A stretch of DNA of 34,991 nucleotides from Patescibacteria group bacterium (GCA_016176685.1 JACOWS010000005.1:1-34991); one strand, 5' to 3'. Shown: positions 3,890 through 25,490, counted from the stretch's first letter. Notes: generated from the sequence alone by a model not told the origin. Translations and numbers: made by a program.

Positions 3890-4903
3890 ATGGAACGTAT
3901 AACACTTACAACCAAACCATCAGATGGTTATGCACTGCTTGACTCCGGCGGGGAAGAGAAGCTTGAGCGCTATGGCAATATGGTGCTGGCACGCCCAGAC
4001 CCGCAGGCGCTGTGGCCTAAAAACTTGCCGGAATGGAATCACCGCCAAGAGCGGGACCCCACCCTTGGCGGTGGGTGGGACACAGCAGATGCTCAATACG
4101 TTAGAGAGGGGAATAGCGGCCACTGGGTGGGGAATATACCAAAAGAATGGCCGATAGAATTTGGCGGTCTGCGCTTTTTGATTAGGCCGACTAGTTTTAA
4201 ACACACGGGCCTTTTCCCCGAACAGTTGCCCAACTGGGAGTGGCTTTCAAAGTTGGTTGTATCGGTGCTTGCGCTGAATGCCGGTGAGGAGACTGAGCCA
4301 CCCGCGAAGCGGGTAATAGGCTCCGAGGCGGCGTTCAGCGCAAGCACTTCTGCATCAGATAGGCTTGTTTCTGTGCTCAATCTCTTTGCCTACACAGGGG
4401 GAGCCACGCTTGCCGCGGCCAAGGCAGGGGCCAGTGTGGTACATGTAGACGCCTCAAAAACAGCAGTGGCCTGGGCGCGGGAAAATGCCGCCGCTTCAGG
4501 CCTGGCAAGCAAACCTATCCGCTGGCTCGTCGAGGATGTCTTGGTGTTTGTAAGGCGGGAGATAAAACGCGGTAACCGTTATGACATCATCATTATGGAC
4601 CCGCCGTCCTTTGGCCACGGGCCCAAAGATGAGTTGTGGAAGATAGAGGAACATCTTATCCCACTCGTGAAGGAGTGCGCGGAACTGCTGTCGGAAAAAC
4701 CGCTCGGTTTTTTGATAAACGGGTATGCGGCGGGATATTCACCGCTTGCATTTGCCTACAACCTGGAGCCGTTACTAAAAAAATATGGCGGTACTATCCA
4801 GTATGGCGACCTCACGATAGAAGAGCAGGCCCGTTCGACGCACTCAGGGCAGGGAAGTGAGCGGCTCTTACCTTGTGGCATTTTTGCCCGCTGGCAGGCT
4901 TGA
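3890..4903 (+). CDS. Class I SAM-dependent methyltransferase (RlmI/RlmK-like) with palindromic in-frame insertions
   Basis: LLDSGGEEKLERYG, FKHTGLFPEQ, VLNLFAYTGG, VDAS and MDPPSFG motifs. Confidence 0.88.
   Translation: MERITLTTKPSDGYALLDSGGEEKLERYGNMVLARPDPQALWPKNLPEWNHRQERDPTLGGGWDTADAQYVREGNSGHWVGNIPKEWPIEFGGLRFLIRPTSFKHTGLFPEQLPNWEWLSKLVVSVLALNAGEETEPPAKRVIGSEAAFSASTSASDRLVSVLNLFAYTGGATLAAAKAGASVVHVDASKTAVAWARENAAASGLASKPIRWLVEDVLVFVRREIKRGNRYDIIIMDPPSFGHGPKDELWKIEEHLIPLVKECAELLSEKPLGFLINGYAAGYSPLAFAYNLEPLLKKYGGTIQYGDLTIEEQARSTHSGQGSERLLPCGIFARWQA
4265..4347. repeat. In-frame hairpin element with a 33-bp core shared with recJ
   Basis: 19-bp arms at 4265-4283 and 4329-4347; core GGAGACTGAGCCACCCGCGAAGCGGGTAATAGG at 4288-4320. 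Confidence 0.85.
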
Positions 4904-4920
4904 CCCCTGCATCAAGCACT

Positions 4921-6087
4921 CTAGCGGTGCTCTATAGCATCTTTTAGCTTTCCCAATTCTGCTTTTGCTGTGGAGCTTGCAAATGCCGCCTCCCCGTCGG
5001 AAAGGTTTTGTGATAAAAGTTCCGCGAGTCCTCCTTGGCCCTCTGCCGTCAAGCTGCGGTTTATATGCGCTATGGTAATAGCGCGCAGGTCGCGCTCGGC
5101 CGTTGAGGTGGCGGCGGTAGAGGTGACTATAATGCCGGCAAGCTTGCCGTCCTGTGCGCGCACCACCGCCCCGCCGGACGATCCCCCCTGCGAAACAACG
5201 GTTCCGCCTATGGAAAAAAGGTCTACCTGCTGTGGGTTGTCAAAGGTAAACAGTCCGCGCACGGCCGCATAGGCCGAAGTAATATACAAATTAAGCGTTA
5301 TCGTTTGTCCGTCAAGAAACCCGGCCGGGTATGCCGCCAGTAGCATACTGTCGCCCGGCGTTGGCAAGGAACCTGTCATGGCAATGAACGGGAAAGTGGT
5401 CGGGAAAGGAATACTCGGCCCTGTTGGCCCCGTAATGTGCAAAAAGGCGTAGTCGTGCTCCCCGGTGCCGGTCCCTTGCTCCTGTACTATCTGCGAAGCG
5501 TTGGCATCTACCCACGCGGGCGGCAGATACAATAATTCTGCACGGTACATAGCGCGCGCGGGGCTGCCGGTGCGCAGTACACAGTCGACATTGCCCTCTG
5601 TGGGGTAGTCTCGCAGTAAAAAGTATTGCCCAACGTGCGCGTTGGTAAGCACCACACCGCGGCTGTCGACCAAAACTCCACTGCCGGATATAGGTTTAAA
5701 AGAGCCGCCCGCTTTGGTGGTACATAAAATGTTCACTAACGCCTCGCGGGTTTGTGTGTTGAGGACGGTTGAGTCTATAGCGGGCGCGAGGGGCAGGGCA
5801 GGAGGGGTTGAGGGCGCCACTGGTGTTGCAATGGGCGCGGCGGCGGTTTTGTGCGCAGGGGTGGGCTCCTGTGGCGTTACAGGGGTACTTAGTGTGGGCG
5901 GCACCTCTGCTACAGTAGAGGTCGCTACCTCTACAGATACTTGCCACTCTCCTGCCACTGGAGTTTCTCCAGCCATTGGAGTAACTGATGTGTAAGTAGA
6001 GAGCGAGGTAAAAAACCCGCCAAGAGCTATTAAGACAGCGGTAGCAAACAGCGCAAGCTTCCCCAGTAGCGAATAAAAGAAATCCAT
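4921..6087 (-). CDS. Membrane-anchored trypsin-like (S1) serine protease
   Basis: N-terminal hydrophobic helix, P/T/A-rich linker, triad motifs TNAHV, HDYAFL and GSSGG; ATG at 6087. Confidence 0.82.
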   Translation of the reverse strand: MDFFYSLLGKLALFATAVLIALGGFFTSLSTYTSVTPMAGETPVAGEWQVSVEVATSTVAEVPPTLSTPVTPQEPTPAHKTAAAPIATPVAPSTPPALPLAPAIDSTVLNTQTREALVNILCTTKAGGSFKPISGSGVLVDSRGVVLTNAHVGQYFLLRDYPTEGNVDCVLRTGSPARAMYRAELLYLPPAWVDANASQIVQEQGTGTGEHDYAFLHITGPTGPSIPFPTTFPFIAMTGSLPTPGDSMLLAAYPAGFLDGQTITLNLYITSAYAAVRGLFTFDNPQQVDLFSIGGTVVSQGGSSGGAVVRAQDGKLAGIIVTSTAATSTAERDLRAITIAHINRSLTAEGQGGLAELLSQNLSDGEAAFASSTAKAELGKLKDAIEHR

Positions 6088-6146
6088 AGTAGATATACTA
6101 TACACGTGGTAGAACGAATCCACCGTCGCGAATCTAAGCGGGCCTG

Positions 6147-6180
6147 CCCGCCGAAGTCCGCTGTGGCGGACAAAGGCGGG
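6147..6180. repeat. Small palindromic element overlapping the tRNA-Gly 5' end
   Basis: CCCGCCGAAG-TCCGC-TGTG-GCGGA-CAAAGGCGGG. Confidence 0.65.
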
Positions 6181-6246
6181 ATTAGTTTAGTGGTAAAACG
6201 ACAGTTTTCCAAACTGTAGTTACCGGTTCGATTCCGGTATCCCGCA
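6176..6246 (+). tRNA. tRNA-Gly(UCC)
   Basis: GCGGGAT/ATCCCGC, ACAGT-TTTCCAA-ACTGT, ACCGG-TTCGATT-CCGGT. Confidence 0.95.
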
Positions 6247-6413
6247 CTATCGAGGAATTTGCAAGCCGGAACTCGCCGCCGCGCAGGGCACGGCGGCTCG
6301 CGCGCACTGCCATTTAGGGTTTATTTCGAATCTGCCGTTTCGCATTGGAAAAAGGCATTTTGGGGCATATAATCCTTAATCACTGGAATCTCCTTGTTTT
6401 GGCCACCGCGAGC

Positions 6414-6442
6414 TTGACGCGATTACAGGACTATGCTATAAG
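6414..6442 (+). promoter_or_regulatory. Sigma70-type promoter of the two-gene islet
   Basis: TTGACG-17 nt-TATAAG with extended TG; followed by a perfect hairpin at 6452-6476. Confidence 0.55.
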
Positions 6443-6516
6443 ATTTACAGCCTACAAAGACATCATGTCTTTGTAGAAAAGTCCTTTTACATCAAGCAAA
6501 AAGGAGGTAAGAACCT

Positions 6517-6777
6517 ATGCTCGAAACCATTTTGACCGCTTTGGTGTGGCTCGGAGGTGGCTATCTCTGCGGAGAGTTCATCATCCGCTGGAATCAACGC
6601 CACCTCCTCGGTGATCATGTGAGCACCAAGAAGCTCGCGGTAGCCCTTCGGCTCAATGCCGATTTGAACCTCTACCGAGGCACTAAGGTCCCGCATTGGA
6701 GACTGATTCTCACTCTCATGGGGCCGATCACGATTTCCAAGGCCGCTTTGCTGCGACTGTGCGGCGGGCCGACCTAA
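6517..6777 (+). CDS. Hypothetical small membrane protein (86 aa)
   Basis: AAGGAGGT Shine-Dalgarno, hydrophobic N-terminus. Confidence 0.65.
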   Translation: MLETILTALVWLGGGYLCGEFIIRWNQRHLLGDHVSTKKLAVALRLNADLNLYRGTKVPHWRLILTLMGPITISKAALLRLCGGPT

Positions 6778-6807
6778 ACCCGAAACCCAAAACGAAAGGA
6801 GGATTTC

Positions 6808-7605
6808 ATGTCCTACAAGTACGAGCTCTTTGTTATCGACCGCAAGTCCGAGCTCGACGGAGAGGAGCAGAAGCGCGTGACCTATCTGCGCGACAAGCTC
6901 TCGACCGCCGAGTCCCTCGGCCTGGAAGCGCAGTCCGCCTCCATCAAGGCCGACATCGCCACCGTCGAGCGAGGTCGTCTCATCACGACCTCGCCCATGA
7001 CCGACACCGAGCTGACCATCTGGCGTGCGTGGTTGCCCACGGCGTACACCGACATCGGTGACGACAAGCGGCACCAGCTTGCCAACTACCACTTCGACCG
7101 CATCCCACAGCCTGTGCTCAAGATGTGGCAGAAGCACAAGGAGTCCGGTGCCTTCGAGCGCTTCGAGATCTGGACGCCGGAGAATCCGCGACCCGACCCC
7201 ATTTTGGTCGGCGTCAACGGCACCGCTCGGCATCTGCTGGCCCGCTGGGGCGAGTCCGATGCCAATCTCATCTCCTTCGACGACGTCAAGCGCGAGCTGA
7301 TGCGCCGGTGGGACGAGAACGAGTACGAAACAGGAGAATACTGGGATCTCCCATTCGTACCCATCTTCCCCGCCATCCTTATCGGTTCGGTACCGCTGTT
7401 TGTGTTCGCCTCGTTTGGTATCAAGGGGTTTGTTCCACCCATCTTGGCCCTTTTGATTGCCATCATTGCTTACTTCTCGGTTCGGCACGTGATGACCAGG
7501 ATGACCACCAGGGGGACAAAGGAACGTCGGGATTCGAGCACACTCATGCAGGCCATCGCCAAGGACGATTCGGTGCAGCGCGAGCTGTACCCCGCTTCGG
7601 CCTGA
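6808..7605 (+). CDS. Hypothetical protein (265 aa) with two C-terminal TM helices
   Basis: AAGGAGG Shine-Dalgarno, strongly C/G-ending codons, followed by a terminator. Confidence 0.8.
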   Translation: MSYKYELFVIDRKSELDGEEQKRVTYLRDKLSTAESLGLEAQSASIKADIATVERGRLITTSPMTDTELTIWRAWLPTAYTDIGDDKRHQLANYHFDRIPQPVLKMWQKHKESGAFERFEIWTPENPRPDPILVGVNGTARHLLARWGESDANLISFDDVKRELMRRWDENEYETGEYWDLPFVPIFPAILIGSVPLFVFASFGIKGFVPPILALLIAIIAYFSVRHVMTRMTTRGTKERRDSSTLMQAIAKDDSVQRELYPASA

Positions 7606-7628
7606 CGAACCAGCTCTGCGGCACTTCA

Positions 7629-7674
7629 GACGCTCATCTCAACCTATCGGTTGGCGTGAGCGTCTTTCTTTTTT
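7629..7674 (+). terminator. Intrinsic terminator of the islet
   Basis: AGACGCTCA...TGAGCGTCT followed by a T-rich tail. Confidence 0.65.
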
Positions 7675-7678
7675 AAAA

Positions 7679-7703
7679 ATCATAGAGGCGTCGCCTCTAT
7701 GAT
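7679..7703. repeat. 25-bp REP-like palindrome, copy 1
   Basis: ATCATAGAGGCG-T-CGCCTCTATGAT; exact reverse complement at 32093-32117. Confidence 0.85.
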
Positions 7704-7757
7704 AGATATTGTCAGCCTGTCCAGCCAGTTCGAGCTATTTCAAGTATTCTGCACCAA

Positions 7758-7794
7758 AAAGAAAAATCCCCGATTTGTTCGGGGATTTTTCTTT
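7758..7794. terminator. Bidirectional intrinsic terminator downstream of hup
   Basis: AAAGAAAAATCCCCGA-TTTGT-TCGGGGATTTTTCTTT. Confidence 0.75.
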
Positions 7795-7800
7795 CGAGAG

Positions 7801-7861
7801 GACGCCGTCTAGAGGACTCTGTCCGGAAGACACCGTCTAGAGGACTAGACTCTGTCCGGAG
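7801..7861. repeat. Imperfect direct repeat (28/33 bp) in the hup 3' UTR
   Basis: GACGCCGTCTAGAGGACTCTGTCCGGAA then GACACCGTCTAGAGGACTAGACTCTGTCCGGAG. Confidence 0.75.
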
Positions 7862-7870
7862 GATTAAACG

Positions 7871-8143
7871 CTACCTAACCGCTTCTTTAAGCGCCTTTGC
7901 GGCTTGGAACTTCGGTACCCGCATAGACGGTACCTGCACTGCAGCCCCCGTGCGAGGGTTGCGTGCGGTGCGCGCCGCGCGCATTTTTGTCTTGAAGATG
8001 CCAAGACCGGCAATAGAAACCTCCTCACCCTTCTTGAGAGAACCGACGATGGTATCTATCATCGCCTCAACCGCGCGCTCTGCGTCGGCTTTGGTGGTGC
8101 CGAGCACATTGTGCACCTTTTCTGCGATATCTTGTTTATTCAT
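7871..8143 (-). CDS. hup: DNA-binding protein HU
   Basis: MNKQDI...GLGIF...ARTARNPRTG...PKFQAAKALKEAV. Confidence 0.95.
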   Translation of the reverse strand: MNKQDIAEKVHNVLGTTKADAERAVEAMIDTIVGSLKKGEEVSIAGLGIFKTKMRAARTARNPRTGAAVQVPSMRVPKFQAAKALKEAVR

Positions 8144-8275
8144 AAGCGATTATATTGGTTAATAATACGGCCTGCCCTGCGCCCACCAGTATAAACCCTT
8201 CAAAAAACCTTGCAATAGAGCCACAGGGATAGTGTTTACAATAATTTATCGCGCAAAAGTTGACAACTGTACAAA

Positions 8276-9805
8276 CTATCGTGCAAATTCGATAGCGCGA
8301 GTCTCCCGGATGACGTTTACCTTGACCTCTCCCGGGTATTTAAGCTCATTTTCGATGCGCATCGCGATGTTGCGAGCGAGTTCGCGGGCCGCAAAGTCGG
8401 TCATTTCGTCCGGTTTGACAAACACACGCACCTCGCGCCCGGCGGAAATGGCGTACGACTTTTCCACACCGGCAAACGAGTTGGCTATGGCCTCGATGTC
8501 GCCCAGGCGTTTGAGATAATTTTCGACACTGTCGCGCCTGGCACCCGGCCGGCCGCCTGAAATAGCATCCGCCACCTGCACGATAACCGACTCGGTCGTT
8601 TCGTATGGATACTCCTCGTGGTGAGACTGCATAGCTTTGACCACCTCTTCCGAGACGCCGAACTTCTGCAGTATTCGGCGGCCGATTTCCACATGGGTAC
8701 CCTGCACCTCATGGTCGAGGGCCTTGCCAATGTCGTGGAGCAAAGCACCCGCACGCGCCACGGCCGGGTTTGCACCCACCTCTTCGGCTATCATGCCGGC
8801 TAGGTGCGCCATTTCTATGGAATGCTGCAGAACCGACTGCCCATAGCTGGTGCGGAAGTGCAGCCGCCCCAATATCTGGGTCACCCGCGGGTCGAGGTTA
8901 AGCACCCCGGCTTCAAACGCCGCCGCCTCGCCTTTTTCTTTAATAATTTTATTTATCTCGTTCTTCGACTTTTCTACCGTCTCTTCAATTTTGGCCGGCT
9001 GTATGCGCCCGTCAATAATCAAGTTTTCAAGCGCAACGCGCGCTACGGCGCGGCGCACCGGGTCGTAGGAGGAAAGCACAATAGAGCCCGGCGTGTCATC
9101 GATAATAACCTCCACGCCGGTTGCACGCTCAAACGCTTTTATGTTGCGCCCTTCCTTGCCGATTATTTTTCCCTTAATGTCGTCGTTGGGGATAGTGATG
9201 GCGGTCGCCATCGTATCGGAGGCAACCGAGTTGCCAAGCCGGTGTATAGCGGTGGTGAGTATATCCTTGGCGCGACGCTCCAGCTTTTCCAACCCTTCGC
9301 GCTCGAGCTTTTGCGTGCGGACCATCAAGTCTTCGCTCGACTCACGCTCAAGCTCGGCATAGAGTTGCCCCAACGCGGCCTCTTTGGAAAGTCCCGCAAC
9401 CTTAGCGAGCTCGCCCGCGCGCTCGGCAAGCAATGCATCAGCTCGCTCTTTTACCGCCCTTACCTCCTCGATGCGCGCCTTAATGGCGCCCACCTCGCGG
9501 TCGAGCTCCTGCTGTTTTTTTTCGAGCGTTTCCTCACGCTTAAAAATGCGTTCTTCTTGCCGCGCAACCTTGTTCTCCTCCTCTTTTAGCTCCGCTTCCG
9601 CAGCGACCAACTTTTGCTTGCCCTCCTCTTCTGCGGCTACGGTTATTTTCTTCGCCTCTTCGCGCGCGTTAAAAAGGATCTGCCGTATTTCAACCTCGAT
9701 AGAACCTTTGCGCGACAAAACCAAAAGCCAGCGGAATACATAGCCGATAGCCGCTCCCAAGAGGCCCGAGAGGCCTAGGAGTAAAAATACTATTTTTAAT
9801 GACAT
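8276..9805 (-). CDS. rny: Ribonuclease Y
   Basis: N-terminal TM helix, coiled coil, KH domain (KGKIIGKEGRNI), HD domain (LLHDIGK), RPGARR. Confidence 0.96.
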   Translation of the reverse strand: MSLKIVFLLLGLSGLLGAAIGYVFRWLLVLSRKGSIEVEIRQILFNAREEAKKITVAAEEEGKQKLVAAEAELKEEENKVARQEERIFKREETLEKKQQELDREVGAIKARIEEVRAVKERADALLAERAGELAKVAGLSKEAALGQLYAELERESSEDLMVRTQKLEREGLEKLERRAKDILTTAIHRLGNSVASDTMATAITIPNDDIKGKIIGKEGRNIKAFERATGVEVIIDDTPGSIVLSSYDPVRRAVARVALENLIIDGRIQPAKIEETVEKSKNEINKIIKEKGEAAAFEAGVLNLDPRVTQILGRLHFRTSYGQSVLQHSIEMAHLAGMIAEEVGANPAVARAGALLHDIGKALDHEVQGTHVEIGRRILQKFGVSEEVVKAMQSHHEEYPYETTESVIVQVADAISGGRPGARRDSVENYLKRLGDIEAIANSFAGVEKSYAISAGREVRVFVKPDEMTDFAARELARNIAMRIENELKYPGEVKVNVIRETRAIEFAR

Positions 9806-10014
9806 AGGCGATTATTGCTAACCGCTTATGCCCCGAGCTCTTCCGTTTTTGCCGCGCCACAGGGGCGGGTCGCTGTGATTATTGCACGCAGAATGCTCGT
9901 GTGTTTAGTGCTTTCACAGAAATATTCGTTACGAGTGGAGCAAGAGCGGAAAACATAGATTAAAGTGTTGAATATAAACGATATGCACGCGAACAAACAT
10001 AGCAGAACACCCTT

Positions 10015-10043
10015 ACCATACCAGAAAAGGTGGCTTTCCGCAA
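10015..10043 (-). promoter_or_regulatory. Putative rny promoter, implying a leader of about 200 nt
   Basis: Minus strand TTGCGG-17 nt-TATGGT. Confidence 0.45.
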
Positions 10044-10068
10044 CCTAAGAAAAACGGAAACTATATAC

Positions 10069-10341
10069 CTACTCACCCTGAACCTTAAAGTAGTAGCCTA
10101 TGATGAAGCCGAGTGGCCCCGAGAGAATACCAGAAACGGCAAGTAGCATATCCTTATAGTCTGTTACAGCAAATCCCTTGTAAGCCGCAATAGCCAGCAC
10201 TATGACAATAACCCCCAAATAACCAACAACATAATAAAGGGCTATTTTACTTCTCGTATGTTCTCGGTGTTGAGATAGTTTAAAAGCCCGTTGTGTGGGC
10301 GGCAAATATTGGTCAAGTTCTACATTGCCGTTACTAGCCAT
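10069..10341 (-). CDS. Passenger: two-TM membrane protein (90 aa)
   Basis: Two hydrophobic helices; stop codon lies in the left TIR. Confidence 0.7.
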   Translation of the reverse strand: MASNGNVELDQYLPPTQRAFKLSQHREHTRSKIALYYVVGYLGVIVIVLAIAAYKGFAVTDYKDMLLAVSGILSGPLGFIIGYYFKVQGE

Positions 10342-10342
10342 A

Positions 10343-10558
10343 TTAAAGTTCTTTCACTTCTATAGCGTAACGCTTACCGTCAGCGTCCTCTTTGACGATT
10401 TTGTTGTCTTTGGCAATATCCAAAAGCTTCATTCCTTTTAGAAGTACATCAACAGGAGTGGTATCAAAGTTTATTGCAAGCTCATTCAACTTCTTCAAAG
10501 CCCCGTTGGTAAAATTAACAGTTAGCTTGTCTTCCTTTTTTGTAGTTTCCTCGGCCAT
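10343..10558 (-). CDS. Passenger: 71-aa protein, possible ribbon-helix-helix
   Basis: KLTVNF strand followed by two amphipathic helices; ATG at 10558. Confidence 0.6.
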   Translation of the reverse strand: MAEETTKKEDKLTVNFTNGALKKLNELAINFDTTPVDVLLKGMKLLDIAKDNKIVKEDADGKRYAIEVKEL

Positions 10559-10580
10559 GATTTTAGTATAGCAAATTGCC

Positions 10581-10706
10581 TTATTTCTTGCGCTCCCTAC
10601 GGGTTTTTTTCTTAGACTTACCAATAACACCAAGTGCCTCGTCAAAGCCGAGGTTGATAGGGACGTGGAGTTTGGATTTGCGCCCTCGTGGGTCTTTCTT
10701 TTTCAT
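10581..10706 (-). CDS. Passenger: 41-aa very basic peptide
   Basis: MKKKDPRGRKSKLHVPINLGFDEALGVIGKSKKKTRRERKK; ATGA overlap with the upstream ORF. Confidence 0.5.
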   Translation of the reverse strand: MKKKDPRGRKSKLHVPINLGFDEALGVIGKSKKKTRRERKK

Positions 10707-10861
10707 GAGCACTTCTTGTACTTTAACAAGATGCTACTTAGTTCCGATTCTATCGTACACACTTTCACCAAAAAGCTTCCGGTTGTAAGCCCAAAAAGGA
10801 ACCACGCCAAGACAAGCACTATAGTTAGTTTGAACCAGTTCTCTTTTAGAAAGCTTTTCAT
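10703..10861 (-). CDS. Passenger: 52-aa single-TM protein
   Basis: MKSFLKENWFKLTIVLVLAWFLFGL...; ATGA overlaps at both ends. Confidence 0.55.
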   Translation of the reverse strand: MKSFLKENWFKLTIVLVLAWFLFGLTTGSFLVKVCTIESELSSILLKYKKCS

Positions 10862-18104: not shown

Positions 18105-18133
18105 TTGACAAGAAAGACCGACTATGCTATACT
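18105..18133 (+). promoter_or_regulatory. Sigma70 promoter P2
   Basis: TTGACA-17 nt-TATACT with extended TG. Confidence 0.75.
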
Positions 18134-18139
18134 AAAAAA

Positions 18140-18620: not shown

Positions 18621-18632
18621 ATGGAGGAAAAA

Positions 18633-18749
18633 ATGTCGAAAAAAGTTGTAAGAGAAAATTCTTGGGCCGAGGCATTTATTGCCTTGGCCGTCGGCATCGC
18701 CATCGCCATCGCCATCGCGGCGACGTTTTACCTCTCCTTCCCCCACTAA
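18633..18749 (+). CDS. 38-aa single-TM peptide
   Basis: GGAGG-5 nt-ATG; MSKKVVRENSWAEAFIALAVGIAIAIAIAATFYLSFPH. Confidence 0.65.
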   Translation: MSKKVVRENSWAEAFIALAVGIAIAIAIAATFYLSFPH

Positions 18750-18796
18750 TAAATGTGGGGGAAGCCGGCGAGCGTGACTTGGTTGTCGCGCTCGCC

Positions 18797-18835
18797 AAAA
18801 GGTTTTTGAGCGAAACCTTTTCAAAAAATTCGCTC
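18797..18835 (+). other. Predicted H-type pseudoknot 1
   Basis: Stem 1 AAAAGGT/ACCTTTT, stem 2 GAGCGAA/TTCGCTC, linker CAAAAAA. Confidence 0.6.
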
Positions 18836-18991
18836 CTTTATACCCCCAACGAGCACAGTGCTGGGAAGGGGTTTGAGTAAAAAGTTAACCCGCCCGCGCC
18901 TGGGGCAGAAAATACAGGCCAAGGCAGGTAGTAGCGCACCTGCCGAAAGGAGACTCTCACTGAAGCCAAGCGGCTGAGAGAGTTTAAAGAG

Positions 18992-19246
18992 ATGTATACA
19001 CCCAAGACAATTTTGCGCGCTGCCCTCCTGTTCGAGGGCGAGCAGGCCATGGGCCTGCTCGCGGCCGAGCACGGCTGCCAGGCCCTTGCCGCGGAGATTC
19101 TCCGCGGCGAGCGGCCGGCGCAATCGCGCCGGCCGCTCATGGCGGCCGAGCAGGCCGCCCGCGTGGCGGCCCTGCGTGCCGCCCGCGCCGCCGAGAAGGC
19201 GGCGTTCGCCGCCAATTTGGTGGCGCTCAAGGCCAAGTACAATTAG
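18992..19246 (+). CDS. Ala-rich hypothetical protein (84 aa)
   Basis: Strong GC3 codon bias; AAGGAG separated from the ATG by a hairpin. Confidence 0.65.
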   Translation: MYTPKTILRAALLFEGEQAMGLLAAEHGCQALAAEILRGERPAQSRRPLMAAEQAARVAALRAARAAEKAAFAANLVALKAKYN

Positions 19247-19258
19247 GCCCCTTGAGCG

Positions 19259-19291
19259 AAGAGGTTGAAAGGTCCTCTTAAAAAACTTTCA
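19259..19291 (+). other. Predicted H-type pseudoknot 2
   Basis: Stem 1 AAGAGG/CCTCTT, stem 2 TGAAAG/CTTTCA, linker A6. Confidence 0.65.
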
Positions 19292-19337
19292 CGCTACGCA
19301 CTCCGGCGGGGGAGGAGTGCAAATAAGGAGAGACGCC

Positions 19338-19427
19338 ATGTACATGGTTCTCCCAAATGGCTTGGTGGTTCCTGTGACCACCAAGCACGAGGCGGCCAAG
19401 GTCGCCTCGACCGAACGCGCTCGTTGA
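19338..19427 (+). CDS. 29-aa peptide
   Basis: TAAGGAG-7 nt-ATG; MYMVLPNGLVVPVTTKHEAAKVASTERAR. Confidence 0.5.
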   Translation: MYMVLPNGLVVPVTTKHEAAKVASTERAR

Positions 19428-19437
19428 GCGTGTTCGG

Positions 19438-19468
19438 GCACCCAAGCTCTCTGTGCAAAACGGCTTGG
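19438..19468 (+). other. Predicted H-type pseudoknot 3
   Basis: Stem 1 GCAC/GTGC, stem 2 CCAAGCT/GGCTTGG, linker AAAAC. Confidence 0.5.
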
Positions 19469-19822
19469 TAGTTTGTAGGTTCTTCGGGAAGGAAGAGATA
19501 CCGAAGTATGGAGGCGACAAGTGGTTACTGTCGTCGCCTCTCTTGAGCTCATCATTAAAATTAATGACGGTTTCAAGAGGGGTTGTGTAAAAAAGCAATC
19601 CCTAAAGTTCCGATTTGCTGGCCCTAACACAAGTCGCCACCCACTGTATTCGTGGGAGGTTGCGGCAACTCCGGCAAATCGATGCTTCTGTTAGTAGTGT
19701 GTGCGTAATCTCCATGACCACTCCTGGAAAGGAGCGGCTCTTGCCTGTCGATACGGAGGCAAGTCCTACGGGAGACCCACTAGCCGTGGCATTCCCGCTG
19801 CGGCAAATTCATGGAGAGCGAG

Positions 19823-20257
19823 ATGACCACCAAGCATTTCTTTTATTCGGTGGGGGCTAACACCCCGAAGTCTGGTTTGAATTACCTCACCCACTCCGGA
19901 AGAGTGTGGTGGGACGGCAGCCGTGAGGCTACCGTCAATGCGGCGCAGGCCGCACTTGCGGCCTATGATGTGGCAGGAAACTGCCACGCACGGGCTATTG
20001 AAGTTGAGGTCTCGGAAGAGATCGGGTTGATCTCACGGATCAACGTATGTGATCTCCGCTCGATGTCTCGCGACATCGAGTCGGAAGACCGCCGCGACTG
20101 GTGGGTCGGCGGCCACGAGGTCGCCGACCCGAAATGGGCCCAGGTCGACTCAGTAAGAGTCGACCACCCACAACAGGGCTACCCGTACGAGTGGGAGCTC
20201 AGAGTGGGAGGCAGGCTCGAGCCTGAACCTCCCACCCTTATTGACGGCGAGGACTAA
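19823..20257 (+). CDS. Hypothetical protein (144 aa)
   Basis: GGAG-6 nt-ATG at 19823; no family recognised. Confidence 0.65.
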   Translation: MTTKHFFYSVGANTPKSGLNYLTHSGRVWWDGSREATVNAAQAALAAYDVAGNCHARAIEVEVSEEIGLISRINVCDLRSMSRDIESEDRRDWWVGGHEVADPKWAQVDSVRVDHPQQGYPYEWELRVGGRLEPEPPTLIDGED

Positions 20258-20274
20258 ACCAACCCTCGCCGTTT

Positions 20275-20303
20275 CGGTGATTGGAGCACCGTAAAAACTC
20301 CAA
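20275..20303 (+). other. Predicted H-type pseudoknot 4
   Basis: Stem 1 CGGTG/CACCG, stem 2 TTGGAG/CTCCAA, linker TAAAAA. Confidence 0.65.
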
Positions 20304-20329
20304 AAGAAGTTCTTCGTTCGAATTCACTT

Positions 20330-20660
20330 CGGCGGGTGCACGAGGTCCAAACCTTCCGCACCCGCCCCCTTTCAAGCGCTTTAGGCCCTAGGCCTAGAGT
20401 ATTTGAAAGGGGAACTTATTCTCCTCTTGCATGACACTTGCACACCCAGGTGTCGTGCGGGCGCGGCGGCTGTCTAGTAACTAATACGGTAATGCGTATA
20501 GCGAACGGCAGCCGCCGATGCCCTCTTTATGTTTGCTGCTGATGTAGCCCCCAGGGAGCTGTGAGTGGAATCCTCTACACTTCTATACGCTTAATGTAAA
20601 TCGCCTCGCGCGTTTTTACGCTGAGCTTGTTGAAGCGCCATTCGCAGCTCCGTGGCGACT
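20330..20660 (+). ncRNA. Candidate structured RNA of back-to-back hairpins
   Basis: GGCGGGTGC/GCACCCGCC, CCCTTTCAA/TTGAAAGGG, TGCATGACAC/GTGTCGTGCG, GGCGGCTGTC/GGCAGCCGCC, GGAGCTGTGAGTGG/CCATTCGCAGCTCC; several G-U pairs on the plus strand. Confidence 0.45.
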
Positions 20661-20668
20661 ACCCGCCC

Positions 20669-20699
20669 AAAAACCGCCTCCATTTCGGGGGCGGTTTTT
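20669..20699. terminator. Bidirectional intrinsic terminator
   Basis: AAAAACCGCCTCC-ATTTC-GGGGGCGGTTTTT. Confidence 0.75.
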
Positions 20700-20710
20700 A
20701 CGTTGGGAGA

Positions 20711-20977
20711 TTAGCGGTAGACCTCATGGTCGCCCACGGCAAGCAATATCACTTCGCCTTTGCTTTTGTCAGTATAGGAAAACACAATGCGGTAACGATA
20801 GTTGACCGAAAAACCACGCCGACCCGCGAGAGGCCCTTTAAGTTTGTGCACATGAAGCCACTCATGATTCATTGTGTTTTTGAAGTCCTCTATTCTTTCA
20901 AATGCTTCGTGTTGAAGCGCGAGCGGAAGTTTCTTGAATTGTCGCCTAAACTGCGGGGACAAATGGACAAGCAACAT
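20711..20977 (-). CDS. RelE/ParE-superfamily toxin (YafQ-like mRNA interferase)
   Basis: F.RQFKKL, HKLKG.L.G...FSV..RYRIVF, LL.VGDH..Y; directly downstream of the antitoxin. Confidence 0.82.
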   Translation of the reverse strand: MLLVHLSPQFRRQFKKLPLALQHEAFERIEDFKNTMNHEWLHVHKLKGPLAGRRGFSVNYRYRIVFSYTDKSKGEVILLAVGDHEVYR

Positions 20978-20980
20978 GAA

Positions 20981-21196
20981 TTAAAGGTCAAGTAGTTTCC
21001 GAAGGTCTCCCTTAAGAATTTTCCCTTCGGAAACTTCGCGTTCTGCACGCAGTACTGCCTCGACTGCTTCATCTTCGGCAAGTTTGTCGAGCGCTTTGCG
21101 CATGACCGCAGCGCGTGAGGAGCCGACCCCCTGTTTTACCAATGTATCGAGGCGGTCTTCATGGTCTTTGGACAACGGGACGGATATGGTGCTCAT
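20981..21196 (-). CDS. Ribbon-helix-helix antitoxin (71 aa)
   Basis: MSTISVPL...SSRAAVMRKAL with acidic tail; 3 nt from the toxin start. Confidence 0.78.
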   Translation of the reverse strand: MSTISVPLSKDHEDRLDTLVKQGVGSSRAAVMRKALDKLAEDEAVEAVLRAEREVSEGKILKGDLRKLLDL

Positions 21197-21298
21197 AAGA
21201 GTAAAAGTATGAATAATTAATATGAATTTATAGTACTCTTGCCGGTAGTGTGCGTCAAGCGGCTTTTTCGTTTCTGCGAGGATGCTATAGTAACGAGC

Positions 21299-22054
21299 AT
21301 GGCACGCAAGCGCCTCGTGGTTGGTAATTGGAAGTCCTATATAGAGTCGCCAAGCGAGGCACACGCGCTTGCTTTGGCTCTGCGCCGCAAGGCGAGAGCA
21401 CTCCCGGGGGTTGAGGTGTGGCTCGCGCCACCCTACCCGCTTTTGCCCGCGGTTGCCGAGGTGCTAGAGAGTTCTCCCATAAAAGTGGGTGCGCAAGCGC
21501 TCTCTGCAAGCCCCGGCGGCAAGCACACCGGCGAGGTCTCTGCGAACATGCTCAAACAAGTGGGCGCACAATTTGCCTTGGTGGGCCACTCGGAACGCAG
21601 GGCACAGGGCGAGGGCGACGAGCAGGTGCGCGCGCAACTTTTGCAGGCACTCCAAGCAAAACTTACGGCGGTGTTGTGTGTGGGCGAGCACGAGCGCCTG
21701 CAGGACGGCTCGCACTTTTCTTTTATTGAGCGGCAGCTTGTTGTCGCGCTTGACGCGCTCCCTCCTAAAGCAAAAGTAATTGTTGCCTACGAGCCCGTGT
21801 GGGCAATAGGGAAGAGTGCGGAAGAGGCGATGCAGCCGCAAGACCTTGAACAGATGGCGATTTTTATACGCAAAACTTTGGTCGAAACTTTGGACCGCAG
21901 CGCGGGGCTCAAGATACCTATACTCTACGGCGGCTCGGTCGAGTCCGCCAACACACACGCGCTTTTGATTGGGGGCGGCGTCAACGGTTTTTTGGTCGGG
22001 CACGCCAGCGTGGAAGCCGAACCATTTTTGGAAATTATAAAAGCATGCAAATAG
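21299..22054 (+). CDS. tpiA: Triosephosphate isomerase
   Basis: GNWK, TGEVS, GHSERR, AYEPVWAIG, YGGSV; ATG at 21299. Confidence 0.96.
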   Translation: MARKRLVVGNWKSYIESPSEAHALALALRRKARALPGVEVWLAPPYPLLPAVAEVLESSPIKVGAQALSASPGGKHTGEVSANMLKQVGAQFALVGHSERRAQGEGDEQVRAQLLQALQAKLTAVLCVGEHERLQDGSHFSFIERQLVVALDALPPKAKVIVAYEPVWAIGKSAEEAMQPQDLEQMAIFIRKTLVETLDRSAGLKIPILYGGSVESANTHALLIGGGVNGFLVGHASVEAEPFLEIIKACK

Positions 22055-22105
22055 CGTTTCAGAAAAAACCAACCCTGCAGGAAAGAAAAAACAAGCTGGG
22101 CTTTT

Positions 22106-23185
22106 ATGAACCTGCGAAGTATTAAAGAAGCCGATATCGGCGGCAAGCGCGTGTTGATGCGCGCCGACTTTGATGTGCCCCTGGAGGGCGGGCGAGTGGT
22201 AGACGACACGCGCATCCGCGCGGTACTGCCCACGCTCGAGCTTTTGCACGCGCGTGGTGCTGCTAAGATAATTTTATTGGCCCACCTGGGCCGCCCCGGG
22301 GGCAAGGCGATAGAAGGTCTGCGTGTCGCTCCCGTGGCCATGCGCCTGCACGAACTTACCCGCGTCCCGTTTGAGTTGCGGGAGAATCTGCGCTTCGACC
22401 CGCGCGAGGAGGCAAACAATGCAGGATTTGCAAAAGAATTAGCGGGCCTGGGCGACGTGTTTGTAAACGAAGCATTCGCCGACTCGCATCGTGCACACGC
22501 CTCTATTGTTGGAATACCAACATTTTTACCAAGCTACGCGGGCCTGCGTTTACAAGAGGAGGTTACACAACTCTCTCGCGCACTTACCCCGCCCAAAGGC
22601 GCGGTGGCCATCATTGGCGGTGCCAAGTTCGAAACAAAGGTGCCCCTCCTAACGGTACTTATAGAGCATTACACCCACATACTTTTGGGGGGTGCTTTGG
22701 GTAACGACATAATCAGGGCGCGCGGGTTCCCCGTGGGCGTGTCGACCGTTTCAGCTACGCCCGCTCCTGAAGTGCTAGCCAGAAGTGACCGCTTGCAGGT
22801 GTCTGAGGACGCAGTAGTCGCAGAAGCGGGTGCCAATGCCGAGCGCACTTGTTTGGTAAACGACATACGCGCAAACGAGCGCATCATAGACATCGGGCCG
22901 CGCACTCGCGCGGTGTGGGGCGAAGTGGTCTCGCACGCACCTTTTGTATTGTGGAATGGTCCGTTGGGTGTGTATGAAGAAGGATACAGAGATGGCACCG
23001 ACGCGGTTGCCGCCGCATTGGCAGATGCAAAGGTGCGCGCCGTGGTGGGCGGTGGCGACACCATTGCCGCACTTTCTAAACACTCGTTTGACCCGGCCAA
23101 AGTCTTCCTTTCAACTGGTGGTGGAGCGATGCTCGAGTTTTTGGCACGCGGCACTTTACCAGGCCTCGAGCCGCTGAAAGTGTAG
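22106..23185 (+). CDS. pgk: Phosphoglycerate kinase
   Basis: RADFDVP, DDTRI, HLGRP, ENLRF, HRAHAS, WNGPLG, GGGDT, STGGGA. Confidence 0.95.
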   Translation: MNLRSIKEADIGGKRVLMRADFDVPLEGGRVVDDTRIRAVLPTLELLHARGAAKIILLAHLGRPGGKAIEGLRVAPVAMRLHELTRVPFELRENLRFDPREEANNAGFAKELAGLGDVFVNEAFADSHRAHASIVGIPTFLPSYAGLRLQEEVTQLSRALTPPKGAVAIIGGAKFETKVPLLTVLIEHYTHILLGGALGNDIIRARGFPVGVSTVSATPAPEVLARSDRLQVSEDAVVAEAGANAERTCLVNDIRANERIIDIGPRTRAVWGEVVSHAPFVLWNGPLGVYEEGYRDGTDAVAAALADAKVRAVVGGGDTIAALSKHSFDPAKVFLSTGGGAMLEFLARGTLPGLEPLKV

Positions 23186-23189
23186 AGGA

Positions 23190-23264
23190 GCGGACAAACC
23201 CCTGCAAAGAGAGTAGGACTTGGCCTAGCGGCCCGGAGCGCTCTCTTTGCAGGGGTTTGTTCGT
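23190..23264. repeat. Long hairpin with conserved 27-nt loop between convergent pgk and the HIT gene (probable terminator)
   Basis: 20-24 bp arms; loop TAGGACTTGGCCTAGCGGCCCGGAGCG is 26/27 identical to the reverse complement of the loop at 30165-30191. Confidence 0.85.
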
Positions 23265-23272
23265 GTAACAGA

Positions 23273-23632
23273 CTAGAGAGCCGCTCGCAGTTTTGCCGCG
23301 TTGCCCATGAGGTCATTCTTGTCGCCCACGACTCCACTTTCGGGGAAGACCCAAATATGCGCGTGGGCGACCTCGTCGCCCACAATTTTTGAAAGTATCC
23401 ACTGCGTATTAAATGCTTTGCGCTGTGCGAGCGCGATTTTCTTTACCACTTCGAAGTACGCGCCGACATCGGGGACATCCCACACCCATTGGATGTGTTT
23501 TTTTGGGACCACTTGGGCGTGGCCTGGCGCGTGCGGGCGGTTGTCGAGGAACGCCAAAAAATTTTCGTCCTCGTACACCTTGGAGGCGGGCACCTCCCCG
23601 GAAACGATTTTGCAAAAAATACAGTTATTCAT
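23273..23632 (-). CDS. HIT (histidine triad) family protein
   Basis: CIFCKIV.GEVP..KVYEDE.FLAFLD..P...GH..VVPKKH; HAHIW. Confidence 0.9.
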   Translation of the reverse strand: MNNCIFCKIVSGEVPASKVYEDENFLAFLDNRPHAPGHAQVVPKKHIQWVWDVPDVGAYFEVVKKIALAQRKAFNTQWILSKIVGDEVAHAHIWVFPESGVVGDKNDLMGNAAKLRAAL

Positions 23633-23637
23633 GTCTT

Positions 23638-23711
23638 GGCTAAGCAAAAACCCTTCGTGCAGGAGTAGGGCTCCCGTTCATCTCTCCGGAGCGAAGGGTT
23701 TTTGCTTAGCC
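23638..23711. repeat. Perfect 20-bp-arm hairpin between the HIT gene -10 box and its start codon
   Basis: GGCTAAGCAAAAACCCTTCG / CGAAGGGTTTTTGCTTAGCC. Confidence 0.8.
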
Positions 23712-23725
23712 TAGTATATACTAGG
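23710..23725. promoter_or_regulatory. Palindromic bidirectional -10 element for the HIT gene and recJ
   Basis: CCTAGTATATACTAGG gives TATACT on both strands. Confidence 0.6.
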
Positions 23726-23729
23726 CGGG

Positions 23730-25490
23730 ATGAAATCCTACCGCCTGCGCGAGCGGCTGCACGACGAACTGATTTTTGACCTCTTGTATTCGCGGGGTAT
23801 CGAGGGAGAGCAGGATATTAAAAATTTTCTCGAGCCGGACTTTGTCCGCGACTCCGGCGACCCGTTTTTGTTGCCCGACATGGGCGTGGCGGTGGAGCGT
23901 CTGCTGTCTGCGAAGAAAAATGGCGAGCAGGTAGCCGTGTGGAGCGACTACGACTGCGACGGCATCCCCGGCGGGGTGATGCTCACCGAGTTTTTGCGCG
24001 CGGTGGGTTTTACAGCCCGGCACTACATCCCGCATCGCCACACGGAAGGATACGGGCTTAACGAAGACGGCCTTGCTGAACTCGCACAGACCGGTGTCAA
24101 AGTTATTATCACCATAGACCTTGGCACCACCGAGCACGAGTCTATATCCTATGCAAACAAAAAAGGAATTGATGTGATAGTTACCGACCACCACCAGGTG
24201 TCCCCCACATCATATGCTACTCCGGAGACTGAGCCACCCGCGAAGCGGGTAATAGGATCCGGGGCGGCATATGATGTGGGAAATTTGCCTCCGGCGCTCG
24301 CGGTCATCAACCCCAAGCGCGCCGATTCGGCATACCCATTCAACGGCCTGTGCGGCGCCGGCGTGGCGTGGAAGCTGGTGCAGGCGATTTTGTCAAAAAT
24401 GAGAGAGGGCGGGCAACCCTTCGACTACGCAGAGGGTAAAGAAAAGTGGCTCCTAGACCTTGTGGGATTGGCAACCCTGTCCGATATGGTTCCCTTGGTG
24501 GGAGAAAATAGGATGCTCGCGCACTTTGGGCTCACGGTGATGCGTCGCAACCGCCGCCCGGGGTTTGCCGCACTCCTAAAGCTTTTGCGTATAAAATCGC
24601 ACACGCTTACCGAGGACGATATCGGGTTTATGGTGGCGCCGCGCATCAACGCCGCCTCACGCATGGACAGTCCGGAAGCGGCCGCCCGGCTTTTAGCAAC
24701 AGAAGACCCGGCAGAAGCGCGCGAGCTTGGCGAGGCGCTCGAAGCGCTCAACAACCAGCGCAAGGGCTTGGTTGCCGCGACGGTCAAAGAGGCAAATCAT
24801 CGCCTCGCGCAAACATCAGTCGAGAGTCCGGTCATTGTGATGGGCAGCCCTTCGTGGCGGCCGGGGATATTGGGGCTTGTGGCAAACTCGCTTATGGGCG
24901 CACATGGCAAGCCGGTTTTTTTGTGGGGTAGGGAAGGAGGTGAAACTCTCAAAGGGTCATGCCGCTCCGATGGCGCGCTAAACGTGGTTGACCTTATGGG
25001 CACCGCCCAAAGAGCTCTGCCCGACGGGGTGTTTGAAGATTTTGGCGGGCACCATGCGGCAGGCGGATTCTCACTCACGCAAGAGCGAGTACACGAGCTG
25101 CCAACGCGGCTCGCCGGTGCGTACGAAACTTTGCGCAAGATCTCTTCAGTAGTTGAGCCGGTTGTGCTGGAGCGCGAGGTAGACCTTGCGGAAGTAGGCC
25201 ACGCCCACACAGCGTTGGCGCGACTGGCCCCCTTTGGCGAAGGCAATCGCAAGCCGCTTTTTATCTTCCCGCGTGTTTCTCTCGAGGGAGTGCGGATGTT
25301 TGGTAAGGCGCAGGACCACTTGGAAATAAAGTTGAGCAAGAACGGAGTGCGAGTACCGGGTGTTTCATTTTTCTCTAGTCAGGATTCTTTTTCAAAAAAA
25401 GTAGAAGCAGGATTGACCGCCGACATAGTAGGGCATATAGAAAACGATTGGCGCGGCGGTCCACGCGTCCGTGTTACGGATGTTATCTAA
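23730..25490 (+). CDS. recJ: Single-stranded DNA exonuclease RecJ
   Basis: DYDCDG, EGYGL, TDHH, GAGVA, SDMVPL.GENR, PRINAASR, GSCRS, GGHHAAGG, PFGEGN. Confidence 0.93.
   Translation: MKSYRLRERLHDELIFDLLYSRGIEGEQDIKNFLEPDFVRDSGDPFLLPDMGVAVERLLSAKKNGEQVAVWSDYDCDGIPGGVMLTEFLRAVGFTARHYIPHRHTEGYGLNEDGLAELAQTGVKVIITIDLGTTEHESISYANKKGIDVIVTDHHQVSPTSYATPETEPPAKRVIGSGAAYDVGNLPPALAVINPKRADSAYPFNGLCGAGVAWKLVQAILSKMREGGQPFDYAEGKEKWLLDLVGLATLSDMVPLVGENRMLAHFGLTVMRRNRRPGFAALLKLLRIKSHTLTEDDIGFMVAPRINAASRMDSPEAAARLLATEDPAEARELGEALEALNNQRKGLVAATVKEANHRLAQTSVESPVIVMGSPSWRPGILGLVANSLMGAHGKPVFLWGREGGETLKGSCRSDGALNVVDLMGTAQRALPDGVFEDFGGHHAAGGFSLTQERVHELPTRLAGAYETLRKISSVVEPVVLEREVDLAEVGHAHTALARLAPFGEGNRKPLFIFPRVSLEGVRMFGKAQDHLEIKLSKNGVRVPGVSFFSSQDSFSKKVEAGLTADIVGHIENDWRGGPRVRVTDVI
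24204..24280. repeat. In-frame hairpin element in recJ with the same 33-bp core as 4288-4320
   Basis: 23-nt arms at 24204-24226 and 24258-24280; core at 24224-24256. Confidence 0.85.

Follow-up and report, generated by a model that had tools for sequence, protein, structure and literature searches.

A hairpin element with a conserved centre and variable arms lies in frame in housekeeping genes of an Adlerbacteria-like bacterium

Why would two unrelated enzymes encoded on one small contig carry the same 33 nucleotides at the centre of hairpins whose arms differ? The question is raised by a stretch of 34,991 nucleotides from a Patescibacteria group bacterium (GCA_016176685.1, JACOWS010000005.1:1-34991), called the window here, which is contig C5 of a genome, G000, of 549,984 bp in 7 contigs (98% complete). 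The host is an Adlerbacteria-like bacterium of the candidate phyla radiation (CPR) from groundwater, with a genome of about 0.55 Mb. An earlier reading of the window (the sequence-only reading) had claimed that an exact 33-bp core lies in two unrelated enzymes on one strand and in one frame, and this was confirmed: the window has two exact occurrences of the 33-mer GGAGACTGAGCCACCCGCGAAGCGGGTAATAGG and no more, one at 4288-4320 and one at 24224-24256, each on the + strand, both cores translate in one common frame as ETEPPAKRVIGS, and the repeat has no match in 100 shuffles. The element around this core is called F1 here. F1 has copies in several genes, is present in some genomes and absent in others, is retained in frame, covaries in two helices, and is found flipped with the frame that a flip predicts.

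Copy A is a hairpin insertion of 83 nt, paired stem and centre together, at 4265..4347 (+). It lies inside an open reading frame (ORF) at 3890..4903 (+) whose translation is like a class-I methyltransferase dependent on S-adenosylmethionine, a name read from the motif VLNLFAYTGG alone, downstream of the insert; orthologs are present in 35 of 40 other genomes of the genus. The 33-nt core (4288..4320, +) is made of GAGACTGAGCC, a tip hairpin at 4300-4314, and AATAGG, and together with the inner arms ATGCCGGTGAG and CGAGGCGGCGT it forms a shared unit of 57 nt at 4278..4334 (+). An inverted-repeat scan gives copy A an exact outer stem of 14 bp. Folded as single-stranded DNA it reaches -36.0 kcal/mol (z = -8.2), and none of 200 shuffles is as stable. 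Copy B, 77 nt long, occupies 24204..24280 (+), three residues past the DHH motif of RecJ, whose ORF at 23730..25490 (+) has DHH, DHHA1 and RecJ OB domains (Pfam PF01368, PF17768, PF02272). Its core is at 24224..24256 (+) with a tip hairpin at 24236-24250, its 57-nt unit, as used in the alignments and segment counts, is at 24214..24270 (+), and its fold of -25.6 kcal/mol (z = -5.9) is again matched by none of 200 shuffles. The tip of both copies is ACCCGC-GAA-GCGGGT. That each core caps a long stem, as the sequence-only reading had it, is thus borne out by the folds. A covariance model (CM) trained on the four copies of G000 described below scores copy A at 88 bits and copy B at 89.5 bits.

The two window copies are not the only ones anywhere. 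G000 holds four, one each in the methyltransferase (A) and RecJ (B) genes and two in DnaE (C and D); the latter came from a mismatch-tolerant search and lie next to each other in opposite orientations on contig C6, both within DnaE. All four fold as single-stranded DNA (z = -8.2, -5.9, -10.0 and -8.3 for A to D), with none of 200 shuffles matching any of them, and beyond A-D the CM finds no further F1 copy in G000. Over 60 relatives the CM gives one strong match, at the RecJ site of G001, a genome of the same genus, with the motif on the antisense strand; three weak matches (E 0.003-0.72) in G056 and G006 were not counted as copies. A strict F1 pattern, with 20 bases of the centre fixed and the 15-nt tip left free, was scanned over 185,579 species genomes, metagenome contigs and viral contigs. 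Among the three matches in species genomes only one, in an Adlerbacteria metagenome-assembled genome that carries the G001-type RecJ copy, folds as a hairpin; the other two have no hairpin and were rejected as chance, as was the single match in a viral contig. The metagenome scan gave 21 loci, 13 of them real hairpin copies and 8 chance matches.

Running the CM over the window, the DnaE locus L001 and 22 further loci gave 15 distinct motif-strand copies, 73-85 bp long, at six sites in five genes, and all 15 lie inside long ORFs. The methyltransferase site is filled in G000 and in metagenome locus L058; the RecJ site in G000, in L050/L055, in the G001 type and in L049; DnaE sites C and D are each filled in G000, L051 and L067; a Dus-like protein has copies in L053 and L063, and a TsaD-like protein has one in L047. 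At RecJ, the segment between DHH and INP is 46 aa long in G000 and 20-23 aa in 17 of 27 loci of the genus; the methyltransferase loop is 63 aa in G000 and 28-33 aa in 17 of 29 orthologs; and the DnaE loop is 82 aa in G000 and 28-34 aa in 9 of 22 loci. Relative to the empty sites, the whole hairpin, both arms included, is extra sequence. G001 has a RecJ copy and an empty methyltransferase site (33 aa). No flanking direct repeat or target-site duplication is evident by eye around copies A-D.

What the copies share becomes clear when they are compared segment by segment. Copies A and B differ at 20 of 25 aligned positions in the outer segments, at 7 of 22 in the 11 nt beside the centre on each side, and at 1 of 35 in the central 35 nt; when copy A is set against the L047 copy from the TsaD site, 2 of 22 inner-arm positions and 22 of 25 outer ones differ. 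This sharp boundary between inner and outer segments sets the shared unit at 57 nt (19 codons). The earlier claim that the arms are unrelated therefore holds for the outer segments and fails for the 11 nt next to the core. The inner arms of the unit are (A)TGCCG....G and C....CGGCA(T); they lead into an internal loop, which is asymmetric, and then into a tip stem of 6 bp closed by a triloop. On its 5' side the loop reads GAGACTGAGCC, with one variant base in 2 of 15 copies; on its 3' side 14 of 15 copies fit WATAGGMTC and one has CATAGG. These roughly 20 near-invariant loop bases flank a tip stem that covaries: nine different stems occur among the 15 copies, with 81 of 90 cells paired, and the triloops are GAA, AAA, GGA, GTA, GCC, AAG or ATA; the sequence of the tip is free as long as it pairs. 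The 57-nt unit sits exactly on the dyad of an outer palindrome that is specific to each site and has 10-14 bp per side; the helix runs through without a bulge.

The arms pair in spite of their differences in sequence. Over the 15 copies, 357 lettered arm cells comprise 302 Watson-Crick pairs, 18 G.T, 7 A.C and 30 others, so that 320 are Watson-Crick or G.T. Alignment A2 was fitted to the model and also holds five distinct antisense rows, so it leans towards the structure; 89.8% of its cells pair, whereas column shuffles reach 66.3% and slid partners 34-42%. The sequence-only reading had described the arm imperfections as mostly G-T, and here it went too far: G.T makes up 4 of 9 non-Watson-Crick cells in the window copies, and over all 15 copies it outnumbers A.C and is itself outnumbered by other mismatches. 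Copies C and D have 5 and 7 mismatches to copy A, none of them in the 16 unpaired loop bases. Invariant loops with covarying helices are the pattern of a structured nucleic acid, and the earlier observation that a conserved centre with varying helices reverses the ordinary MITE (a miniature transposable element with inverted repeats) is supported.

In some copies the inner arms contain tandem G.A/A.G pairs, a feature lost in several others. Rfam at gathering level finds four tRNAs only in the window and no intron or ribozyme; the best sub-threshold matches of copy A reach 15-16 bits against thresholds of 40, among them a C/D-box small RNA (sRNA) at 15.3 bits. Complementarity of an 8-nt stretch of the loop to the conserved 5' end of 16S rRNA was judged to be at chance level.

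If the unit is shared and the outer arms are not, where do the outer arms come from? The sequence-only reading had proposed that the arms are generated locally or carried from earlier sites, and that comparison with empty orthologous sites might reveal one arm as host-derived. That comparison indicates that neither arm is host-derived; both are extra, which also speaks against local generation. Against carriage, no arm recurs elsewhere in G000 at up to 3 mismatches, and the three arms tested have no exact match in viral contigs; the outer arms as carried or guide sequence were rejected on these grounds. A hairpin already present in empty RecJ sites, acting as an attractant, was also considered and rejected, as 17 folded empty alleles have no common stem-loop.

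Orientation and reading frame are linked. The motif strand is the strand that carries the folded conserved loop motif, and a copy is called forward when this strand is the same as the host mRNA and reverse when it is antisense to it. Each of the 15 copies keeps the frame, adds whole codons and contains no stop. Read forward, the core offers a single open frame, as TGA closes the first frame and TAA and TAG the third, and all seven forward copies are in that frame (E/D-TEP..K/P/E-R.IGS). Read in reverse, none of the three frames of the core is closed, yet ..EPITR..G(G)SVS is what all eight reverse copies encode (the reading for G001 was made by hand). Read through, the inserts would give the peptides ETEPPAKRVIGS or EPITRFAGGSVS.

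Several sites are found in both orientations. At RecJ, G000 and L050 are forward and the G001 type and L049 are reverse; at DnaE site C, G000 and L051 are reverse and L067 is forward; at DnaE site D, G000 and L051 are forward and L067 is reverse. Replacing a hairpin by its own reverse complement in place keeps the host frame, and copies A, B and D flipped in silico give exactly the ..EPITR..G(G)SVS peptide. The fixed reverse frame is what inversion about the axis of the arms predicts, because independent reverse insertions would have had three open frames available. Copy C (C6:146044-146120, reverse) has ATGAGC in its tip stem; flipped in silico it gains an in-frame TGA from these bases, which locks it in reverse, and it is found only in its open reverse orientation. 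In L067, where this site is filled by a forward copy, the stem reads ACGAGC in place of ATGAGC and so has no TGA. By hand count the arm identities between the RecJ copies of G000 and G001 are 24/32 and 21/32 for the two alternatives, so that a flip of the core only is inseparable from inversion of the whole hairpin.

Once in place, the copies are inherited with their genes. The tip stems track the site, with ACCCGC at the methyltransferase and RecJ sites, AT[G/T]AGC at DnaE site C and GTCCGC at DnaE site D, and because these variants follow the site, the copies must descend vertically without being homogenised within a genome; concerted evolution of the copies inside one genome was rejected for the same reason. 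Across four orthologous pairs, only 2 of 128 positions have changed in loops and tip stems, against 28 of 188 in the arms, with flanking DNA 80-90% identical. Ascertainment explains part of this contrast, as the scan pattern fixed 20 of those bases. In copies found by synteny, the changes are 2 of 35 (copy C of L051) and 4 of 35 (copy D of L067), and the 15-nt tip is unchanged between copy A and L058 and between copy B and L050. The arms of copy D in G000 and L051 differ by paired double substitutions. One arm of the L050 copy has three changes, each of which makes it pair again with its partner, as if one arm had served as the template for the other. There are 18 G.T against 7 A.C cells on the motif strand over all copies, and 11 against 3 where the copy is antisense to the mRNA, counts that include related copies; this is a weak hint that folding takes place in the motif strand and not in the mRNA.

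What does the insert do to the protein? An AlphaFold model of RecJ (from an alignment of 60 sequences) has a mean predicted local distance difference test score (pLDDT) of 88.8, and only residues 160-183, which are the insert, fall below 50 and have no secondary structure. The site tolerates length, with loops of 20-69 aa among 113 homologs. The model and the in-frame, stop-free copies fit with F1 being read through as a disordered protein loop, and so agree with one of two fates suggested by the sequence-only reading, that the insert is tolerated; the other, removal at the RNA level, is weighed below.

The RecJ loop after the DHH motif (window ~24195-24290; orthologs L014-L043 and P0003-P0121) is itself a hotspot for insertion. 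Of 27 genus loci 9 have inserts here, as do 47 of 113 homologs, and the inserts are of at least five recurrent peptide types; the loop is 20-23 aa long in 66 of the 113 homologs and 24-69 aa in the other 47. The homologs P0054 and P0042 are apparently a pair with and without one insert, and P0048 has half of an F1 peptide followed by a peptide of the type of another family, Z, either nested or replaced.

Family Z is one of several further families with a conserved centre and variable arms that were found among the 181 hairpins of G000 with an exact stem of at least 11 bp; shuffled genomes have 13-15 such hairpins. It consists of AAAAGTCCTCGG...CCAGACTTTT around an inner variable hairpin and lies in long ORFs in 5 of 5 listed copies. 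Matches to AAAAGTCCTCGGGTC, a variable inner hairpin and then CCAGACTTTT are at C3:61835-61931, C4:99569-99655, C4:136759-136845, C6:70358-70456, C7:20440-20532 and C7:7624-7803 of G000, in both orientations and in frame in long ORFs. Family Z is widespread across the genus, where it is found in the very loops that F1 uses in RecJ, DnaE, the methyltransferase and the Dus-like and TsaD-like proteins; two sites that hold F1 in relatives, the TsaD-like and the Dus-like one, are taken by Z in G000. The DnaE and methyltransferase loops of relatives carry Z, a family W and others. At the DnaE loop, eight species (L076, L081, L083, L085-L087, L090 and L091) share a 45-aa form, ..RTAKAAALA.., with a weak DNA hairpin, which may be an old decayed insert.

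Two more families, X and Y, are mostly intergenic, and their arms resemble bidirectional terminators with an A-tract and a T-tract, as if a core had replaced the terminator loop. Family X has a 27-nt core, taggacttggcctagcggcccggagcg, and site-specific arms of 20-25 bp, one A-rich and the other T-rich; about 13 copies occur in G000 in both orientations, two of them in the window at 23194-23260 and 30140-30216, 9-15 nt past the stop codons of upstream ORFs, and the core has no exact match in viral contigs. Family Y has a core of about 34 nt, gcaggagtagggctcccgttcatctctccggag, on a stem GGCTAAGCAAAAACCCTTCG/CGAAGGGTTTTTGCTTAGCC, and its window copy (23638-23711) lies just upstream of recJ; the six copies in G000 have arms like ordinary terminators, with the loop replaced. 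G000 also has four core-less perfect palindromes inside long ORFs, and a repeat of the conventional sort with conserved arms, AAGGTTCGACCTT-N15/16-AAGGTCGAACCTT, in seven copies (C2:4874, C3:61334, C4:104704, C4:105542, C4:134733, C6:5662 and C6:138928). Palindromes of the form ATCATAGAGGC-gNc-GCCTCTATGAT are at 7679-7703 and 32093-32117 of the window. Upstream of the methyltransferase start, window 3758-3889 holds 2-3 units of a tandem repeat, GNPPSGPKASRFML, overlapping a tRNA called at 3727-3797; this is probably repeated tRNA-flanking DNA and not coding.

Could an enzyme of G000 move such hairpins? Three ORFs of 224-240 aa (C2:41267-41941, C4:28876-29559 and C2:73166-73888) match Y1_Tnp above its cut-off and have the motifs YHxYNRG, HUH-like NHFHL and Y..HLNP. 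They resemble the HUH proteins of the IS200 insertion sequence (IS) and of the tyrosine transposases associated with repetitive extragenic palindromes (RAYT and REP), and they match the RAYT model weakly, at 32-37 bits against an NCBIfam cut-off of 80. Each is flanked by palindromes of its own, which differ from F1. The CCAAGGG..CCCTTGG palindrome beside one of them recurs as perfect palindromes of 41-46 bp in frame in two long ORFs (C7:17674-17719 and C2:70890-70930). Searches of G000 for RVT_1, the TnpB zinc ribbon, the IS110 DEDD domain and DDE_Tnp_1 gave no match. The RAYT-like HUH proteins are therefore the only transposase-like candidates found in G000, and their link to F1 is a lead only.

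How does F1 compare with elements that are already known? In behaviour it is closest to the Rickettsia palindromic elements (RPEs), also known as protein-coding palindromes. Excerpts of the RPE literature describe elements of about 150 bp, often inserted in frame in unrelated genes with a conserved peptide (PMC10969869), and 85 of 728 RPEs within ORFs in R. felis (PMC1166351). Like the RPEs of these excerpts, F1 is a short palindrome that lies in frame in unrelated housekeeping genes of a small reduced genome and adds a peptide (PMC10969869, PMC1166351). RPE peptides are there thought to be compatible with the fold of the protein, and the RecJ copy of F1 lies in a tolerant loop. The differences are as plain: the excerpts put RPEs at tens to hundreds per genome with a peptide conserved along its length, whereas F1 has four copies and is conserved in its centre only, with outer arms that differ at 20/25 and 22/25 positions where an RPE is conserved as a whole element. 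F1 also occurs in both orientations at one site, giving two different peptides.

Neither the conserved terminal inverted repeats nor the target-site duplication of a MITE was found, and the ends of F1 are its variable part. The terminal hairpins of parvoviruses exist as flip and flop isomers, with an asymmetric tip in both orientations on a constant stem, and belong to an HUH nuclease system. Those viral ends belong to a linear genome and invert by hairpin transfer, whereas F1 is internal to a chromosomal gene, where recombination between the arms would suffice. With the REP/RAYT and IS200/IS605 systems F1 shares imperfect hairpins of a kind that act in one folded strand, and RAYT-like genes are present in G000. 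REPs, as described in an excerpt of PMC3733652, are extragenic, 20-40 bp long, and have a GTAG or CGTC tag at one end; F1 is intragenic, its consensus ends without such a tag, and no RAYT gene adjoins it.

Two further comparisons concern the pattern of conservation. Small mobile hairpins of sponge and fungal mitochondria can, according to excerpts of PMC2800124, enter coding and rRNA genes, as F1 enters coding genes; the sponge elements keep their stems and vary in their loops, unlike structured RNAs, as the authors point out (PMC2800124), and F1 shows the opposite, structured-RNA pattern. The stem-loop tigRNAs of TIGR-Tas systems are described, in excerpts of the two reports, as variable and always palindromic stems around short conserved motifs, some of them in frame in CPR genes where they code for disordered regions (PMC12045711; bioRxiv 10.64898/2026.09.09.750476). 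F1 also has a variable palindromic stem enclosing a unit. As far as those excerpts go, tigRNA units stand in arrays at or in a tas gene and have varying interior spacers, whereas F1 copies are solitary, lie in housekeeping genes and have a constant interior. Searches of G000 for Nop-domain Tas proteins with PF01798 and PF21572 gave no match at E <= 1, and the custom Tas profile of the TIGR authors was not part of this search. Within the set of papers covered, a literature search for such elements in CPR, Parcubacteria, Patescibacteria and Adlerbacteria found no description.

Taken together, we lean, though not by much, towards reading F1 as a non-autonomous hairpin element that is translated in frame, resembles RPEs but is conserved in the opposite way, and is probably mobile. 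F1 would sit in frame in length-tolerant surface loops of housekeeping proteins and be translated as a disordered loop. The conserved loop bases, presented on one folded strand (the motif strand), may be the recognition site for an enzyme that moves or flips the element, and the arms would need only to pair, the pairing being kept by compensatory change or by copying from arm to arm. The outer arms could have arisen in two ways: the unit may land on the dyad of an older palindromic insert, or the arms may be made at insertion. Several points weigh against this element reading. No act of transposition was seen, copies A-D have no evident target-site duplication, and F1 has been tied to no enzyme. 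The origin of the outer arms and the conservation of the centre in place are left unexplained by it, and a purely selfish, dead copy should decay, yet the centre barely changes in place (2/128 against 28/188 in the arms). The five F1 host sites hold other hairpin families in relatives more often than random landing suggests. The RAYT-like genes, on contigs C2 and C4, adjoin no F1 copy (C5 and C6) and have their own, different palindromes. Of the co-occurrence with HUH/RAYT nucleases that the sequence-only reading had in mind, the genes themselves are there, three in G000 and the family in 26 of 41 genus genomes overall, but the association is loose: all 9 genus genomes whose RecJ site is filled have the family, but so do 12 of the 18 whose site is not, which gives a one-sided Fisher p = 0.06 over relatives that are not independent.

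Much of the same evidence would suit a hairpin that is selected in place as a functional nucleic-acid module, either a site in folded single-stranded DNA or RNA to which a protein binds, or a guide-like stem-loop of the TIGR type that stands as an orphan. The invariant loops and covarying helices are what such a module predicts, the mismatches of copies C and D spare all 16 loop bases, the centre is retained between orthologous copies whose arms have diverged as much as the flanks, the motif strand favours G.T over A.C in either gene orientation, and the tandem G.A/A.G pairs and the C/D-box match, well short of its threshold, point the same way; excerpts of the TIGR papers add variable palindromic stems and in-frame intragenic units in disordered regions of CPR proteins (PMC12045711; bioRxiv 10.64898/2026.09.09.750476). 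We nevertheless consider this unlikely. The genome has four copies, and only 1 of 60 relatives besides has a clear one; a module that is absent from most orthologous sites is dispensable; the interior is constant where tigRNA spacers vary and there is no array; the 98% complete genome has no match to the Nop-domain profiles (PF01798, PF21572) or to IS110 DEDD, these being standard Pfam profiles and not the Tas profile of the TIGR authors; several copies have lost the tandem G.A motif, a role as RNA would require the reverse copies to be transcribed from the antisense strand, and the arms tested have no exact match in viral contigs. A bolder reading we regard as similarly doubtful. F1 would be one of several loop-conserved hairpin families of the CPR that home to the dyads of palindromes, flip to switch the peptide, and keep their unpaired bases under purifying selection for a resident protein, either an HUH nuclease or an undetected guide-RNA effector. 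If true, essential genes would house in F1 a single-strand nucleic-acid device that still works, and not junk in decay.

The remaining explanations fare much worse. Removal of the insert from the transcript, in the manner of an intron or by RNase cleavage and religation, or skipping by the ribosome, gains some appeal from the very stable stem, which brings the flanks together, and from the bypass of hairpin inserts in translation that is known in other systems. It seems very improbable here, because forward copies always use the only open frame and reverse copies exist: whole codons without stops in 15 of 15 copies, and the constraint on the forward frame, would be needless if the insert were removed. 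Copy C, which would gain a TGA if flipped, is found only open and the forward copy of L067 lacks that TGA, the motif is antisense in 8 of 15 copies, and Rfam gives no intron or ribozyme. Local growth of palindromes in tolerant loops by template switching during replication, with no mobile element at all, is just as hard to credit; the hotspot loops that vary in length, the self-correcting arm of L050 and the four core-less perfect palindromes in long ORFs are what it would leave behind, and it cannot yield an identical 33-mer, or a 57-nt unit agreeing at 20 of 22 inner-arm bases, across unrelated genes and genomes. A chimeric join at a repeat, the misassembly that the sequence-only reading had allowed for, can practically be set aside. 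In Logan contigs of the runs that hold F1 the assembly does stop within the repeated core, a usual effect of repeats on de Bruijn graphs, and neither a flipped nor an empty form is seen, which is uninformative either way. The same-site insertions recur in contigs of other samples with their own substitutions and open ORFs (L050 and L055 at RecJ, L058 at the methyltransferase, and also L051, L056 and L057).

Three features take F1 beyond a routine repeat: the origin of its outer arms, the conservation of its centre in place, and loops that are common to different families. The reversed conservation, with a 57-nt unit on site-specific palindromes and flips that obey the reading frame, offers a testable handle on insertion and inversion directed by hairpins. 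In practice, protein alignments and gene calls for CPR genomes are inflated and confused by inserts of this kind. Palindromic invaders that enter essential genes in frame are textbook knowledge only for Rickettsia, and here the same phenomenon is found in a CPR bacterium with a 0.55-Mb genome, with several families. At least five loops, in RecJ, DnaE, the methyltransferase, the Dus-like protein and the TsaD-like protein, have been hit repeatedly across the genus, which makes them a natural experiment on new peptide segments in conserved enzymes.

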